A stretch of DNA of 64,000 nt. Origin: an uncultured bacterium (lineage in GTDB: Bacteria; Eisenbacteria; RBG-16-71-46; CAIMUX01). Position 1 is the first letter of the stretch, and each line of letters begins with the position of its first letter. The notes below the pieces were generated by a model. That model was not told the origin of the DNA and searched no databases. It worked only from the letters and a program-made list of their open reading frames with translations. The DNA is taken from contig CAZWSC010000078.1 in NCBI GenBank assembly GCA_964636385.1, positions 42,874 through 106,873 of the forward strand. The letters run 5' to 3'. Positions 16,622 to 22,102 of the stretch are shown here, one piece after another. The position numbers and the translations under genes are program-made.

Positions 16622-17812
16622 CTAGTACAGCCAGCTCTTGATGGTTCCGTCGGCCCGGAGCTCCGCGCCCTGGCGCCTGAAGGCCCAGCACATGTATGAC
16701 ACACTGACGAAGAACGAGGCCGGCAGCCTGTTGAGCGCGCCGATCTTGCAGCCCAGCAGAGTGGAAGCGCCGCCGAACCCCATCGGACCGATGCCCAGGG
16801 CATTCGCCTTGGTGAAGACCCTCTTCTCCAGCGCCGCCAGCTCCGGATTCGGGTTTGTGTCATCCAGCGACCTGAGCAGCTGCTCCTTGGATTCCGCATA
16901 TCCCGTGGCCCTGTCGCCTCCGACGCAGACCCCGAGGATCCCGGGTCCGCATCCCTTGCCCTGCGCCTGATAGACGGCGTCAAGTATGCACTTCTCCACA
17001 CCGGCCAGGTCACGGCCGGCGCCGAGTCGCCCGTAGGGTAAGGAGTACTGGATGCCGCAGTTCTCGCAACCGCCGCCCTTTAGGATCAGGCGGATCTCCA
17101 GGCCCGAACGGTTCCACTGCCGGATGTGGTAGACAGGAGAGCCGGGACCGAGATTGTTGCCCGAGTTCTTTCCTGTGAGGGAATCCACCGAGTTCTGCCT
17201 CAGGTAGCCCACCTCTGTTGCCTTTATCACGGCCTGCTCGGCGGAGCGGCGAAGCATCCCTTCGTCGAATCCGCGGGGCGCCTTGATGTAGAAGAGGATC
17301 GACCCCGTGTCCTGGCACAGGGGAAGGCTGTTCGCCCTGGCCAGGTCGATGTTTTCGTCGATGATCTTCATCGCCCAGATGGCGTTTGAGTCGGGAGCTT
17401 CGGAGTCCCGCGCCCTGTTCATCGCGCGCGCAACGTCATCGGGCAGATCTGCGGACGTCTTGCGCACGATCTCCAGAAACGCCGCGCGAAGGGCGGCGGG
17501 TGTCATACCCACAGCAGCGGCCTTTGAGGCTTTCTTCGCGGGTTTGACAGCCATGGCCCGTGCAGCTGCCTTCCTCGCGGGCGCCTTGGCGGAGGCTTTA
17601 ACAGCTGGCCTGGTCTTCTTCACGGGTGTCTTCGCCGCGGGCCTGGCCTTGCCGACAGGCGCCTTCTTCGCGGCTGACGGTCTGGCTGAAGCCTTGACTG
17701 CGGCCTTCCTGCCCCCGCTTCGCGCAGCGGAGGGCCTGGCGGTCTTTTTGCGTGTGGTGGTCTTCTTCGGGGCGGCGCGTCGCCCTGCACTCGACCCAGA
17801 GGCTTTTTGCAT
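16622..17812 (-). CDS. Fe-S hydro-lyase alpha subunit (class I fumarase/tartrate dehydratase alpha) with a ~100-aa N-terminal Lys/Ala/Pro-rich histone H1-like extension
   Basis: The catalytic part (CQDTGSILFYIKA...GGGCENCG...) is a typical alpha subunit. Upstream in-frame KAAVKASARPSAAKKAPVGKARPAAKTPVKKTRPAVKASAKAPARKAAARA. GGGGAG sits 9 nt before the ATG at 17812 and a TATAAC -10-like box lies upstream, supporting translation of the tail. A shorter start at 17506 lacks an RBS. Confidence 0.7.
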   Translation of the reverse strand: MQKASGSSAGRRAAPKKTTTRKKTARPSAARSGGRKAAVKASARPSAAKKAPVGKARPAAKTPVKKTRPAVKASAKAPARKAAARAMAVKPAKKASKAAAVGMTPAALRAAFLEIVRKTSADLPDDVARAMNRARDSEAPDSNAIWAMKIIDENIDLARANSLPLCQDTGSILFYIKAPRGFDEGMLRRSAEQAVIKATEVGYLRQNSVDSLTGKNSGNNLGPGSPVYHIRQWNRSGLEIRLILKGGGCENCGIQYSLPYGRLGAGRDLAGVEKCILDAVYQAQGKGCGPGILGVCVGGDRATGYAESKEQLLRSLDDTNPNPELAALEKRVFTKANALGIGPMGFGGASTLLGCKIGALNRLPASFFVSVSYMCWAFRRQGAELRADGTIKSWLY

Positions 17813-17970
17813 GCCTGTCATCTCCCCTCGCGTTATACCGACACTTCGTGGACTGCTGGATCATTGCGGCTGCCGGGCGTAGTGTCAAGCCAGCCTTGTC
17901 CGGAGCACCGTGAACCGGCAGGGGTTCGGACAGGCTTGTTATCCCGGAAAGATTGCGGGGCTCTCTGGAG

Positions 17971-18618
17971 TCAGGCTACGCGGATGCTTCCGTCTTCCTG
18001 CGGTGGATCCATGGCTGCGGCTTCACGGACCGGGGATCTCACCTCGAGAAGTGTCGGTCCGCCCGCAGACATGGGGAGGTCCAGCCACTGCAGCGTGAGC
18101 ACGTCTCCAGGGTTGAAGAGCCGGCTGACCGTCCCCGCCGTGGCTTCATCCAGCCTGAAGAAGATCTCTGCAGATGTCTCCGGGAGGCTGGAGGCCGTCA
18201 GCGGCCAGGAGTGGCCGGGATCATCCCCGTCGGTCACACTCAGATGCAGACCCCACTGATGCGGCTCGTCCTGGATCAGGCGGCATGGACCCTGGCTGAT
18301 CATCACGGGGCGGAGTCCGGCCCGGTGTCCCATAACTGACCATGCTCTGGCCAGATACGCGGACATGACCATGATCCCCATGACGCAGTTGAAGCCCCCG
18401 ATGATTACCATCAGGGTCCGGAAGCTGGGAGTGTCGAGAGGCAGAAACGGCACTGTCTCAAGCCAGCCCGGAAATGACGCCGTGATCGCGAAGTACCCCA
18501 TTGCCCCGAAGGCGACGGCCAGCACAAGCCCTGTTGTGGCGATAACCAGGGGGAGGAGCATTCCGGGCGGCTGCAGGGTGATCGAGTCTGTCCTGTGGAT
18601 GTAGACGGGCGTCCTCAT
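17971..18618 (-). CDS. Hypothetical membrane protein
   Basis: Three or four hydrophobic helices (LLPLVIATTGLVLAVAFGAMGYFAI; LMVIIGGFNCVMGIMVM). No known motif. Confidence 0.4.
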   Translation of the reverse strand: MRTPVYIHRTDSITLQPPGMLLPLVIATTGLVLAVAFGAMGYFAITASFPGWLETVPFLPLDTPSFRTLMVIIGGFNCVMGIMVMSAYLARAWSVMGHRAGLRPVMISQGPCRLIQDEPHQWGLHLSVTDGDDPGHSWPLTASSLPETSAEIFFRLDEATAGTVSRLFNPGDVLTLQWLDLPMSAGGPTLLEVRSPVREAAAMDPPQEDGSIRVA

Positions 18619-18819
18619 GGTACTGGGATCGGCAGGGATCCCGGGGGGCTTGATGCAAAACACCGGCTGGTGTGAAGGCGGCTGCCCGGTTCACAAGGAA
18701 GCTCTGGTGGCCGCGCATGAAGACAGAGGACCGCGTGTCAGGATGTCCGGGTGTCCGTGGCCGGGGAAGTGCGCGGATTGTCGAGAACGGACGCCGGGAG
18801 CTGCTGTCGATCACCGGGC

Positions 18820-19896
18820 CTATCTGTAGATCGTCTTCAGCCTGCTCCATGATGTTTCGACCTGGCTGAACTCGCAGGGCGACGGTATGCAGGAGACTCC
18901 CTCTCCCATGAAGACTCCCCCGGCGTCCAGGCACTCGCCCCACTTCAGCAGTCGGCAATCCAGACCGAGGCAGCAGGCTCCTTCTCCGGGGACGCACGGA
19001 TTCGGCCAGCAGACAGTGTTGTCCCCATGGTAGACGTAACCGAATGCCTCGCAAGTGGCCCTGGTCTGGATGATGCATCGTCCCTGGGGTGTACAGCAGG
19101 CACCGGTGATGGTGTGCCCCCCGCAGGGATTGTAACCGTCGCGGCCGAAGCCGAGTTTGCCAAGACCTTCGACACGATCGACGACCACCGGGATGGAGTC
19201 ATCACCAAAAACCGGCCAGCCCTGGCTTGGATGCTCTGCTATCTCCACGGTATTGCCGGAGTACACATAGCTGGCGAACCACAAAACCTCGTTGATCTGC
19301 GAAGTGAGAGGATCGTCGACCCATACGATGCCTACGCCGGTGCCGTCTCGCGGCCAGCCGTTGCTCTCGAGGACGAACGGAGCATTCGTTCCCCATGCAA
19401 AGGGTTCGACAAGTGGGCTGGAGTACCTCATTCCGAAGGTCACTGCCATAACCGTGGGCCAGGAGAATCCGTCGAACACGGCAAGCACGTAGTAGACGAT
19501 TTCGTCCACCTCCCCTGGCGTACCATCGATGCGGGTTATGGCGTGTTCACAGTCGTAGAGCTCGGCATAACTGCTGTAATCGATTCCGCTGGTGTAGATG
19601 AGAGACGGGTTGGCGTGAAGGATGAGCATTCCGCCTTCGTTGACCCCGCCGGAGGCATGAGGACTCCACGCGCAAAGAGCGATGAGCAGTGAAATGGATA
19701 GATCCCGAATCCGTTTGAACCGACAGCAGTCGGATGGCCTTCGTTCGGATGGGGTGGTTGTAACGGTTTCCGGCGGGCAGGGCTGCGGTTGGGGGGTACC
19801 TGCCCGGTGTCGGGCAGAGAGGCACGGGCCCGCCGGGTGTCGATACGGTATGACAGAACTGCCGCCCAAGGATGTGGAGTGGTGTTGACTGCGCAA
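18820..19896 (-). CDS. Cys-rich secreted or membrane-anchored protein with two tandem ~40-aa six-Cys repeats. Start codon uncertain
   Basis: Hydrophobic signal-like segment RIRDLSISLLIALCAWSPHASGG at residues ~65-88, with no in-frame ATG/GTG/TTG just before it. C-terminal repeats NPCGGHTITGACCTPQGRC...CWPNPC and NPCVPGEGACCLGLDC...CIPSPC. Confidence 0.5.
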   Translation of the reverse strand: MRSQHHSTSLGGSSVIPYRHPAGPCLSARHRAGTPQPQPCPPETVTTTPSERRPSDCCRFKRIRDLSISLLIALCAWSPHASGGVNEGGMLILHANPSLIYTSGIDYSSYAELYDCEHAITRIDGTPGEVDEIVYYVLAVFDGFSWPTVMAVTFGMRYSSPLVEPFAWGTNAPFVLESNGWPRDGTGVGIVWVDDPLTSQINEVLWFASYVYSGNTVEIAEHPSQGWPVFGDDSIPVVVDRVEGLGKLGFGRDGYNPCGGHTITGACCTPQGRCIIQTRATCEAFGYVYHGDNTVCWPNPCVPGEGACCLGLDCRLLKWGECLDAGGVFMGEGVSCIPSPCEFSQVETSWSRLKTIYR

Positions 19897-20000
19897 GGTC
19901 TCTCCGATCAGGAAGCGCCCCGGCGATTCCCCGGGCCAAGCATATCATCCCGTCCGTGACGGAGTACACCCGCGGGGGCCGGCGGTTCAGGGGAGATTCA

Positions 20001-20981
20001 CTACAGCAGTCCGAGAACCTTCCTGACCTCCGCCATGGTCTCCCGGGCGATGGCCCGGGCACGCCTTCCGCCCTCCTCCAGAATCTCCTCGACCATGCCG
20101 GGGGAGCTTTCGAGGTCGGCGGCCTTCGCCTGGATCGGCTCAAGGGTGGCCATCAGGTTCCTGTGCAGCATCTTCTTGCAGTCCACACACCCGATCCCCG
20201 CGATGCGGCACTCCCTGTCAACCGTGGCGATCGTCTCCTCGTCGGAGAAGTTCCGGTGCAGGGTGAAGATATTGCAGATGCCGGGGTCTCCTGGATCGGT
20301 CCGGCGCTTCCGGTTCTCATCTGTCATCGCCGGGGCCAGCTTCTTCCAGACAGAGTCGGAGCCCTCCAGAACCCCGATGTAGTTGTTGAGGGACTTGCTC
20401 ATCTTGCTTCTGCCGTCCATTCCCATGATCCGCCCCCCCTCCCTCGGGACAAGCTGTGCGGGCTCGGGGAACACCCCGGCGAAGCGGGCGTTGAACTTCC
20501 GGGCAATCTCCCTGGTCAGTTCAATGTGCTGAACCTGATCCTCACCGACAGGGACCGCCACGGCCTTGTACAGGAGAATGTCGGCTGCCTGAAGCACCGG
20601 ATAGGTGAAGAGGCCGGCGTTGATATTGTCCTCGTGCTGGCGGCTCTTCTCCTTGAACTGTGTCATCCTGGAAAGGTCGCCCATGGGGGTGACGGTGTTG
20701 AGGATCCAGGCAAGCTCTGTGTGCTCCGGTACGTGTGACTGAACGAACAGGGTGCATAGCGCGGGGTCCAGGCCGCAGGCAATGTTCACCCTTGCAGCAT
20801 CCAGGATCCTCTGCTTCATGGACTGAACATCGTACTGGATTGTAACGGCATGGTAGTCGACGACGCAGAATATGCACTCATACCGATCGAGGAGTTTAAC
20901 CCAGTTGCGGATTGCCCCGCAGTAGTTCCCTATGTGAATGTCGCCACTGGGCTGAATGCCGCTGAAGAGAAAGGGCTTCAC
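20001..20981 (-). CDS. trpS: Tryptophan--tRNA ligase
   Basis: HIGH-type motif (SGIQPSGDIHIGNY) and KMSKS. Length and overall fit to class I TrpRS. Confidence 0.9.
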   Translation of the reverse strand: MKPFLFSGIQPSGDIHIGNYCGAIRNWVKLLDRYECIFCVVDYHAVTIQYDVQSMKQRILDAARVNIACGLDPALCTLFVQSHVPEHTELAWILNTVTPMGDLSRMTQFKEKSRQHEDNINAGLFTYPVLQAADILLYKAVAVPVGEDQVQHIELTREIARKFNARFAGVFPEPAQLVPREGGRIMGMDGRSKMSKSLNNYIGVLEGSDSVWKKLAPAMTDENRKRRTDPGDPGICNIFTLHRNFSDEETIATVDRECRIAGIGCVDCKKMLHRNLMATLEPIQAKAADLESSPGMVEEILEEGGRRARAIARETMAEVRKVLGLL

Positions 20982-21093: not shown

Positions 21094-21603
21094 CTAGCGG
21101 ACGGCAAGTTCGACGAGCTTCGCGATCTTCTCGTACCGGCGGAGGCTGATGTTCGGGTTGTACTTCAGAAGGAGTTCCCGAAGATCGGCACAGAATGTCG
21201 AGTGGCTTGCCTGGCGAACCACCCTCTTGCTCCGCTTGCGGGCAACCTTGCGGGGCCTGGACAACCTTGCGACCGGCGCGGCCGCAGCGACCGGCTTGCG
21301 AACCGCCTTGCGCGCGACCTTCCTCACGGCCTTCTTCGCCTTGCGGGCCACCTTGCGTACGGCCTTCTTCCGGGCCGGACCGGCAACCACGATCCTCGCA
21401 CCCTTGCGCCGGCCACGGCTGATACCGGCCTTCCTCGCCTTGTTGTTTACTGTGGGGAGCGAGACGCCGTGCTTGTGGGCGATCTCGCGATAGCTGAGCT
21501 TGCCTGCCCTGATGTCGGCTATGATCGCCTTTTCCCGCTTCAGCAGGTCGATCTTTCCGGTACTTCTGGTCCGAGTGGTCCTTCTCGCCTTTGATGCCTT
21601 CAT
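21094..21603 (-). CDS. Small DNA-binding protein: N-terminal helix-turn-helix followed by histone H1-like KKAVRKVARKA repeats
   Basis: LSYREIAHKHGVSLPTVNNKARKAG looks like an HTH. Then ARKKAVRKVARKAKKAVRKVARKAVRKPVAAAAP. GGAAGGAG sits 8 nt before the ATG at 21603. Confidence 0.55.
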   Translation of the reverse strand: MKASKARRTTRTRSTGKIDLLKREKAIIADIRAGKLSYREIAHKHGVSLPTVNNKARKAGISRGRRKGARIVVAGPARKKAVRKVARKAKKAVRKVARKAVRKPVAAAAPVARLSRPRKVARKRSKRVVRQASHSTFCADLRELLLKYNPNISLRRYEKIAKLVELAVR

Positions 21604-22102
21604 GGCTGTCACTCCTTCCGGTTCCTTGCACGACCGCGCAACCAAGTCAACTTCTGCATCCTCCAGGGGACTCGGTGTCTCTCCGTCAACCAGGTGTCAG
21701 CCGGGCTGACAGGCGCGCCGTGCCGGTGCCTTCCGAGGCATGGAGGATGCACACGACATTGGATGCAGTATGGAAAGACTCCGCATGTGTGTCAACCTGC
21801 TTATAACAGATTTCGAGCAATAACCGGCATGGATCGTGTGCATTGGCGTTGGAAATTGATAATCGAACGTAGTGGTGATGGTGAGCCGGATGTCCCGCAT
21901 ATCGGCCTTGTACTTCACACATGATTCCTGCCCATTCGACCGGTACAGGTGTGTGTTGCCTTCGCAGTGTTCGGCAGGTGCGTGGAAGGGTCTGAACCTG
22001 CGTTCCGCTCTGCGCATGGAAATGCGATGACACGGAGGTGCCGTCTGAGTACTCTTCCTGGAATGCCCGGTTGGTCCCGGTGCGGACAGGAGGTGTAGCC
22101 TT

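Follow-up and report, generated by a model that had tools for sequence, protein, structure and literature searches.

The Cys-rich repeat gene on the minus strand at 18820..19896 of the window (the complete stretch of 64,000 nt that was analysed, with a G+C content of 63.6%) is intact and, at a rough probability of 0.65, encodes a 358-aa precursor that is translated from a TTG at 19896 and carries a Sec signal peptide behind a long leader. The ORF given in the initial annotation was confirmed, with 358 codons plus a TAG stop codon (18820..18822), and its first codon is the TTG. It had been described as lacking a canonical start ahead of the signal-like segment. This holds for the region just upstream of the hydrophobic stretch, as there is no ATG, GTG or TTG between codons 10 and 90, but it is wrong for the ORF as a whole, which opens with a TTG that is preceded by a Shine-Dalgarno (SD) sequence. 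We infer that translation starts at this SD-preceded TTG, which would be an ordinary answer to the puzzle of the start.

The gene lies 105 nt downstream of trpS (20001..20981, PF00579) and is followed by a conserved, unannotated membrane-protein gene (17971..18663), and further downstream by the gene for a fumarase alpha-subunit (16622..17821, PF05681). Pfam and NCBIfam scans of the membrane-protein neighbour returned nothing relevant. A search of 5.8 billion proteins yielded 16 matches to the Cys-repeat protein, including an identical database entry of 269 aa (P0001), P0002 (75% identity, from locus L001), P0003 (77%, from locus L002) and P0004 (43%, from locus L003). Two additional loci, L004 and L005, were found by a genome scan (46–49% identity), the latter being labelled Candidatus Eisenbacteria. 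The order trpS, Cys-repeat gene, membrane-protein gene is common to five of the six loci (window and L001–L005), the sixth being L003, a short contig on which trpS was not called. The fumarase gene is reached only in L002, L004 and L005 (and in L006, the window's own duplicate), and the neighbourhoods of three distant homologs (L007, L008, L009) have no conserved partner gene in common. Metagenome contigs scanned with a protein pattern and with a DNA pattern of the conserved SD region gave no match by either, and nothing was found by an Rfam scan of positions 18500–20300 at E<=1.

Start codon and upstream region

The frame contains three canonical start codons, namely TTG at codon 1 (19896), TTG at codon 10 (19869) and ATG at codon 90 (19629), together with near-cognate ATT codons at codons 63 (19710) and 68 (19695). 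Of the canonical ones, only the first (19894..19896, minus strand) has an SD sequence, GGAGAG at 19900..19905, which ends 3 nt upstream of the start and has its GGAG core 5 nt upstream. No SD sequence was detected before the TTG at 19869, the ATT codons at 19710 and 19695, or the ATG at 19629. SD sequences of the GGAG type are found in most long genes of the window. The block GATCGGAGAGAnCTTGCG, which holds the SD sequence and then the TTG, is conserved in the window, L001 and L002.

The whole spacer between trpS and the gene is well conserved in these three loci, with the successive blocks GGGTGTACTC, TGnTATGCT, GGGGAATCG and GATCGGAGAGAnCTTGCG. The non-coding block GGGTGTACTC (19962..19971, minus strand) lies between the trpS stop codon and the gene, is identical in all three, and may represent a −35-side promoter element. 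The second block, which reads TGaTATGCT in the window (19939..19947, minus strand), resembles an extended −10 element and could conceivably have a promoter role. A consensus promoter scan called no promoter, at these blocks or elsewhere. A terminator scan reported a single terminator-like site, located inside the coding sequence and at chance level.

Among the relatives, L002 is the most informative for the start. Its TTG opens a signal peptide directly (MRTRLICVLLATILIL...), being followed at once by MRTRLICVLLATILILPSS...AVAG|ANEGG, so that the complete leader is a textbook signal peptide, MRTRLICVLLATILILPSSRTPAVAG|ANEGG. Because the signal peptide of L002 begins immediately at this codon, we regard the SD-preceded TTG as a working start of the gene family. 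The more distant loci have a comparable arrangement, GGAGG-n4-TTG in L003 and L005 and GGAGG-n4-GTG in L004, and their first 12 codons are conserved as MLRDxxIRERxS. Over these 12 codons L003 and L004 differ at 8 codons, 5 of these differences being synonymous third-position changes. In L001, the conserved in-frame SD sequence and TTG lie 62 codons upstream of an ATG that adjoins the h-region; this ATG has no SD sequence and is one codon off the position of the window's ATT at 19710. Given an ATG immediately before its h-region, this relative could also use a downstream start. For the window gene, the TTG at 19896 would be the only ordinary route to a functional product, because a protein with 14 Cys needs the signal-peptide core, which is conserved and in frame, and no other canonical start with an SD sequence precedes it. 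The rare start codon considered in the initial annotation would have to be one of the two ATT codons, which lack an SD sequence while that of the TTG is conserved.

Public gene calls place the start at the internal ATG (codon 90, 19627..19629, minus strand), which gives the 269-aa protein P0001. This begins with MLILHANPSL and so is devoid of a signal peptide. Residues upstream of this ATG (G84, N86, G89) are invariant or nearly so in the family. Judged from the sequence, the public start is a mis-annotation that removes the signal peptide.

Predicted signal peptide and N-terminal extension

The hydrophobic stretch had been noted about 65 residues into the ORF, and indeed LSISLLIALCAW occupies residues 66–77. 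It is the h-region of a predicted Sec-type signal peptide core covering residues 61–83 (19648..19716, minus strand), with KRIRD (61–65) as n-region and SPHASG (78–83) as c-region, and it aligns with the signal peptides of homologs at an A-x-A|G-P-N junction. After the c-region comes the mature N-terminus G84-x-N86-x-x-G89...H94, which is invariant in the family. Short classical leaders with the ending A-x-A|G-[PKR]-N are present in most relatives, and as the c-region and the conserved mature N-terminus align with these, cleavage is predicted at A81-S82-G83|G84. By inspection of the sequence, the window protein has the n-, h- and c-regions expected of a signal for signal peptidase I. It departs from such signals in position, as these are found at the extreme N-terminus, usually with an n-region of <10 residues, whereas here the h-region starts at residue 66; L002 shows the usual placement. 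An n-region of 60 residues is unusual for a Sec signal peptide. Processing as a lipoprotein by signal peptidase II is unlikely, since the sequence deviates from the lipobox [LVI][ASTVI][GAS]C (I-A-L-C75 has Leu at −1). C75 is not conserved, the corresponding sequences being ILIALSTV in L001 and ILILPSS in L002.

Residues 2–60 (19717..19893, minus strand) form an extension that is rich in Pro, Ser, Arg and Thr and is predicted to be disordered (pLDDT <50 in the AF2 model). Its charge is net positive, with 7 K+R against 3 D+E in residues 1–60. Extensions of 36–76 codons between start and h-region occur in the window and in four other loci, and the extension is absent from L002. In the window and L001, a run of 60 in-frame codons without a stop separates the SD sequence and TTG from the basic n-region, and the length of the leader differs between the two by just one codon. 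No stop codon interrupts the reading frame between start and mature domain in any of the five extension-bearing loci, and in four independent lineages the start shares its frame with the mature domain. The openness of the extension alone is weak evidence, because all three forward frames are free of stop codons across it, and shuffled sequences stay open with P of about 0.3–0.6 (about 0.3 per locus).

The extension shows no clear coding signature. Its GC content by codon position is flat (0.59/0.65/0.60, compared to 0.57/0.49/0.72 in the rest of the gene), and the identity between the window and L001 is 30% in the extension against 77% in the mature part. Between L003 and L005, dN/dS is 0.57 in the extension, a value not significantly below 1, compared to 0.33 for the mature part. 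The extension evolves fast and under hardly any constraint. It is probably dispensable, as judged from L002, a close relative without the extension that begins its signal peptide at the same TTG. An origin of the extension as a repeated or mobile element was discarded, as blastn and tblastn comparisons with the window and all loci gave chance matches only; a weak “RHRAG” similarity of 17–27 nt to L003 and L005 had E-values of 0.8–2.8. Folding of the leader RNA revealed no structured element (z = +0.46).

An independent Logan assembly of SRR1179191 (L006) matches the window without any difference over 3810 nt, and dN/dS in the mature part is 0.17 versus L001 and 0.13 versus L002, so that this part is under strong purifying selection. 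On both grounds we reject a frameshift, an assembly error and a pseudogene. A sequencing or assembly frameshift had been among the explanations offered initially; it would disconnect the signal peptide from its initiation codon, as would a lost start, and either might be suspected from the stretch between codons 10 and 90 that is devoid of ATG, GTG and TTG while a close relative has an ATG there. We give this hardly any credence, as the long in-frame architecture recurs in four other loci and the frame is kept in four lineages. The initial annotation had further suggested that a homolog with a signal peptide starting at an ATG that is absent here would reveal a pseudogene or an assembly error. 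Such an ATG formally exists in L001, but it has no SD sequence and L001 retains the in-frame SD sequence and TTG 62 codons upstream, and for this reason we do not take it as a sign of a pseudogene. A real initiation site downstream, at one of the ATT codons (19710 or 19695, as mutated counterparts of the ATG in L001) or at the ATG at 19629, with the 60 upstream codons as an untranslated leader, is quite unlikely. It would agree with the close positional match of the L001 ATG to the ATT at 19710, with an extension that is not conserved and has no coding-type excess of GC at third positions, and with the choice of 19629 by gene callers. However, neither the ATT codons nor the ATG in L001 have an SD sequence, the ATG at 19629 lies inside the conserved mature domain and would give a Cys-rich product without a signal peptide, and, as no stop codon intervenes, the in-frame SD sequence and TTG would translate the extension anyway. 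In addition, L002 shows the TTG to be a functional start in the family.

The main rival to a cleaved signal, a type II signal-anchor, shares the start at 19896. In that case, a basic N-terminus of 65 residues would stay in the cytoplasm and an uncleaved segment would tether the ectodomain to the inner membrane, as the initial annotation had proposed for a membrane-anchored protein. A start far upstream agrees with that proposal, as do the length and positive charge of the N-terminus, to which KRIR contributes, the helix that AF2 places at residues 58–75, and the hydrophobic stretches of L003 and L005, which are much longer (about 40 residues). The h-region of the window protein has just 12 residues, though. 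It precedes Pro79 and the small residues A81 and G83 at −3 and −1, which form a site that coincides with the family-conserved A-x-A/G before G-x-N-x-x-G, where short classical signal peptides of the family end; L002 opens with a plain signal peptide at this very start. We therefore consider the anchor unlikely, and the sequence suggests instead that the signal peptide is cleaved and that its n-region is exceptionally long. A Tat-type signal, with export of the already folded protein, is very improbable. Tat signals are long and have a twin-arginine motif (S/T-R-R-x-F-L-K) directly ahead of the h-region, and the motifs S-R-R-P-F-L-A in the extension of L004 and D-R-R-M-A-A adjoining the h-region of L001 would suit such a signal, but the window protein has RFKRIRD before its h-region, with the only RR (SERRPSD) 13 residues upstream and followed by polar residues, and such a motif is missing from L002, L003 and L005 as well. 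Also speaking against Tat are the 14 Cys of the cargo and the short signal peptides of the Sec type that most paralogs carry.

With the preferred start at 19896 and a cleaved Sec signal, translation would give the 358-aa precursor, in which residues 2–60 would be a disordered basic extension, in effect a very long n-region, and residues 61–83 a conventional Sec signal. Sec would export the protein, signal peptidase I would cleave it ahead of G84, and the 14 Cys would then be oxidised in the periplasm, presumably to three disulfides per repeat plus a C116–C258 bond that ties a beta-sandwich to the stalk formed by the repeats. The beta-sandwich, which is cohesin-like, would presumably be a binding module, the two six-Cys hairpin-helix repeats may act as a rigid spacer, and the terminal tail of the TWGxIKxxYR type could serve as a tag for sorting to, or retention in, the envelope.

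Domains of the mature protein

The mature protein has 275 aa and consists of three parts: the beta-sandwich, two six-Cys repeats and a terminal tail. The protein probably is a secreted, disulfide-stabilised, envelope-associated binding protein; anything more specific would be conjecture. The window protein matched no Pfam or NCBIfam family at E<=10.

The N-terminal domain (residues 84–258; 19123..19647, minus strand) is modelled as a beta-sandwich with a cohesin-like fold (pLDDT about 85 in AF2). A HMMER search with residues 84–256 against 1.84 billion cluster representatives retrieved 741 proteins at E<=1e-3, 419 of them at E<=1e-10. In relatives, the domain usually follows directly after the signal peptide, sometimes in 2–4 copies, and it also occurs inside proteins of up to 3939 aa. 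We define the family by the N-domain motifs G-x-N-x-x-G...H, WP..G.G and DDS.P..D...G..GF, in combination with one or more six-Cys repeats and, at the C-terminus, W-[GS]-x-[ILV]-K-x-x-[YF]-[RK]. The window protein belongs to it, having the AGPNxGGxLxxH domain, the GACC repeat and the TWGxIKxxYR-type ending with all invariant columns present. In a set of 242 aligned domains, C116 and C258 are both present in 222 and both missing in 10, while C116 occurs alone in 10 and C258 alone in none. This covariation suggests a C116–C258 disulfide that closes the beta-sandwich domain.

The two six-Cys modules that had been described earlier were found at residues 265–301 (18994..19104, minus strand; GACC-x5-C-x7-C-x13-C-x4-C) and 306–341 (18874..18981, minus strand; GACC-x4-C-x7-C-x13-C-x4-C), and they match each other in BLASTP with an E-value of 2e-5. 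Two details of that description need correction. The long gap is x13 rather than x10, giving (G)ACC-x4/5-C-x7-C-x13-C-x4-C, and the Cys of “NPC” is not part of the module, as C258 lies outside the repeat and covaries with C116 in the beta-sandwich domain. Among 11 homologs, there is little or no variation at the six Cys of either module. An AF2 model of the repeats on their own has a mean pLDDT of 81, with about 90 in the repeat cores, and each module is modelled as a beta-hairpin, a short helix and a further strand.

The view that the repeat fits no known family has held up, with no Pfam or NCBIfam match at E<=10 and no significant fold match in the PDB (Foldseek E>1), and the expectation of a disulfide-rich extracytoplasmic protein is likewise supported. 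Multi-repeat relatives gave no Pfam or NCBIfam family at E<=1, and curated models of Cys-rich bacterial repeats (e.g. the Myxococcus Cys-rich repeat, DUF4215) did not match. A profile search of PDB sequences returned iRhom (E 5e-4) and SusC (E about 1), weak matches that we judged to be compositional.

The C-terminal tail and comparison with known systems

After the last Cys, the protein continues for 17 residues with the tail EFSQVETSWSRLKTIYR-COOH (18823..18873, minus strand). Its core, W350–R358 (18823..18849, minus strand), is a local variant of [ST][ST]WGxIKxx[YF][RK]-COOH, as the window protein ends in WSRLKTIYR-COOH; the close clade has Ser after the Trp and almost all other relatives have Gly. 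The repeat-only relative P0014, used as a query, retrieved 177 proteins, and every organism name given by a source was Candidatus Eisenbacteria. The motif W-[GS]-x-[ILV]-K-x-x-[YF] is located <=7 residues from the C-terminus in 102 of 135 proteins, 91 of the 135 ending exactly at [YF][RK]. The tail is also present in 58 of the 150 best relatives of the N-domain, some of which have no Cys repeat, so that in all about 160 of 285 related proteins have it at or near the C-terminus. The consensus of the region is C-D-P-N-P-C-P-P-V-P-T-E-x-T-T-W-G-x-I-K-A-x-Y-R-COOH, and 68 of the proteins have the Trp 10 residues downstream of their last Cys. The tail is found on proteins with different passenger domains (the “AGPN” domain, PPC, DUF7901, DUF3344), and several genomes encode more than one tail-bearing protein. 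The contig of L004, for example, also encodes P0032, and the locus-tag pair ACFL6M_05435 and ACFL6M_02175 belongs to one genome. We found no mention of the tail in the literature, including that on Eisenbacteria signal peptides, type IX secretion and Cys-rich repeats.

In 33 relatives the tail motif is missing and the protein ends instead with a C-terminal domain of the type IX secretion system (T9SS) type (GVYF...R..VVLR), for which PF18962 or PF13860 was found on example relatives. The tail and such domains (Por_Secre_tail PF18962, FlgD_ig-type PF13860) thus occupy the same position in paralogs of the same lineage, following either the last Cys repeat or the N-terminal passenger domain that they share, a pattern suggestive of an equivalent sorting function for the tail. 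As the T9SS-type domain takes this place in paralogs whose passenger domain is the same, the tail may be a tag for sorting to, or retention in, the cell envelope, as far as its position and conservation can indicate. The two differ in kind, as the T9SS domain is a beta-sandwich of about 75–100 residues and the tail has about 10–19 residues, the two never co-occurring in the 33 relatives; the T9SS models PF18962, PF13860 and TIGR04183 do not match the window protein. Tentatively, and at less than even odds, the tail could be an undescribed C-terminal sorting or anchoring signal of an Eisenbacteria-lineage pathway parallel to T9SS, with the window gene encoding a substrate, and with the GACC repeat and the “AGPN” beta-sandwich as new extracellular families.

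The N-terminus is reminiscent of the extended signal peptide region (ESPR) of autotransporters and two-partner-secretion proteins, in that an extension precedes otherwise normal Sec n-, h- and c-regions and a long leader would be removed upon export. The ESPR motif is conserved and has about 25 residues, whereas the extensions described here have 36–76 residues, are of low complexity, are hardly conserved and are absent in one close relative. No Pfam or NCBIfam model of a signal extension matches the window protein. The likeness of the beta-sandwich to the cohesin modules of cellulosomal scaffoldins (PDB 2vo8, 2xdh, 1ohz) is one of fold, which is common also to Ig-like and CBM-like sandwiches such as YcnI and pilin domains; sequence identity is 6–15%, the Pfam cohesin model (PF00963) does not match, and no dockerin partner was identified. 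The six-Cys modules differ from EGF-like and knottin-like repeats and from the iRhom homology domain, all of which gave sub-significant matches (Foldseek E>1) that plausibly reflect Cys composition, and the spacing CC-x4/5-C-x7-C-x13-C-x4-C is found in no Pfam or NCBIfam repeat.

These results correct a public mis-annotation, as the 269-aa database protein starts inside the mature domain. A Sec signal behind a 60-residue, probably dispensable leader can mislead gene callers and secretome predictors when GC-rich, uncultured lineages are annotated; the phylum of this bacterium is not known to have a cultured representative. The start-codon part is ordinary, and the more interesting point is the set of uncatalogued domains together with the tail. 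The beta-sandwich (apart from its likeness at fold level), the six-Cys repeat and the terminal decapeptide are uncatalogued in Pfam, NCBIfam and the PDB, and they belong to an Eisenbacteria-centred family of secreted proteins with several hundred cluster representatives. The alternation of the tail with T9SS C-terminal domains on the same passengers provides a testable lead to a new protein-sorting signal.

Start-site calls, upstream spacer and leader variants

The public gene calls for the Cys-repeat gene of the window miss its N-terminal part. In the window gene's own database entry (P0001), the NCBI, JGI and Logan calls all begin at an internal ATG (window 19627-19629, minus strand), and the protein as called has 269 aa and no signal peptide. 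The call for the homolog in L002, the locus of a close relative, likewise begins internally (P0003), in this case at a GTG (MAGANEGG...).

The spacer between trpS and the Cys-repeat gene (window 19906-20000, minus strand; 105 nt) is better conserved between the window and the loci of the close relatives, L001 and L002, than are codons 1-60 of the gene itself. Its conserved blocks are GGGTGTACTC, TGnTATGCT and GGGGAATCG. The spacer may be an extended -10 promoter; a consensus promoter scan made no call within it, and a comparison with Rfam gave no match.

Leaders of the homologs in two more distant loci have features of their own. The signal region in L003 (290-345) contains a 15-nt unit that occurs three times in tandem and encodes SAAL(T/I); the hydrophobic leader that results is unusually long, at about 40 residues. 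In L004 (3701-3985), the extension between the start and the h-region of the signal peptide comprises 76 codons and carries a Tat-like motif, S-R-R-P-F-L-A, that is located 13 residues upstream of the h-region and is found at this locus only.

Neighbouring genes

A membrane-protein gene (window 17971-18663, minus strand) lies directly 3' of the Cys-repeat gene, and this arrangement occurs in all six of the syntenic loci. The encoded proteins (215-253 aa) contain two or three stretches of hydrophobic residues, and their C-terminal domain is conserved (...GPCRL(I/V)QD.P..WGL...); neither Pfam nor NCBIfam has a match for the protein. The gene is absent beside distant homologs of the Cys-repeat gene in the neighbourhoods inspected.

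The fumarate hydratase alpha subunit (window 16622-17821, minus strand; PF05681 at residues 116-385) has an N-terminal extension of about 115 residues, which is Lys/Ala/Pro-rich and histone-H1-like. This extension is also found in the counterparts from L004 (5717-7024) and L005 (5620-6930), where it starts with MMNR(R/K)K. In L002 and in the duplicate of the window from a Logan assembly (L006) it has been split or shortened by gene callers. A further case of such basic low-complexity segments within the lineage is a small sigma-70 region-4-like HTH protein (window 21094-21645, minus strand; weak PF08281 match), the middle of which is repetitive and Lys/Arg/Ala-rich (AVRKVARKAKKAVRKVARKAVRK); its gene is kept 5' of trpS in L005.

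Alternative C-terminal endings on the Cys repeats

The six-Cys GACC repeats are also found joined to other conserved C-terminal endings (P0030, P0033, P0059, P0093, P0106, P0133; P0013, P0015, P0071). One group of proteins ends in ...N.QGCPL[HNRLK], at times plus one residue, and another has dockerin-like D-x-N-x-D-G repeats at its end, with G-x-C or F-C-P as the last residues. This variety of endings suggests that the GACC repeat is a general stalk module, paired with several alternative C-terminal tags.
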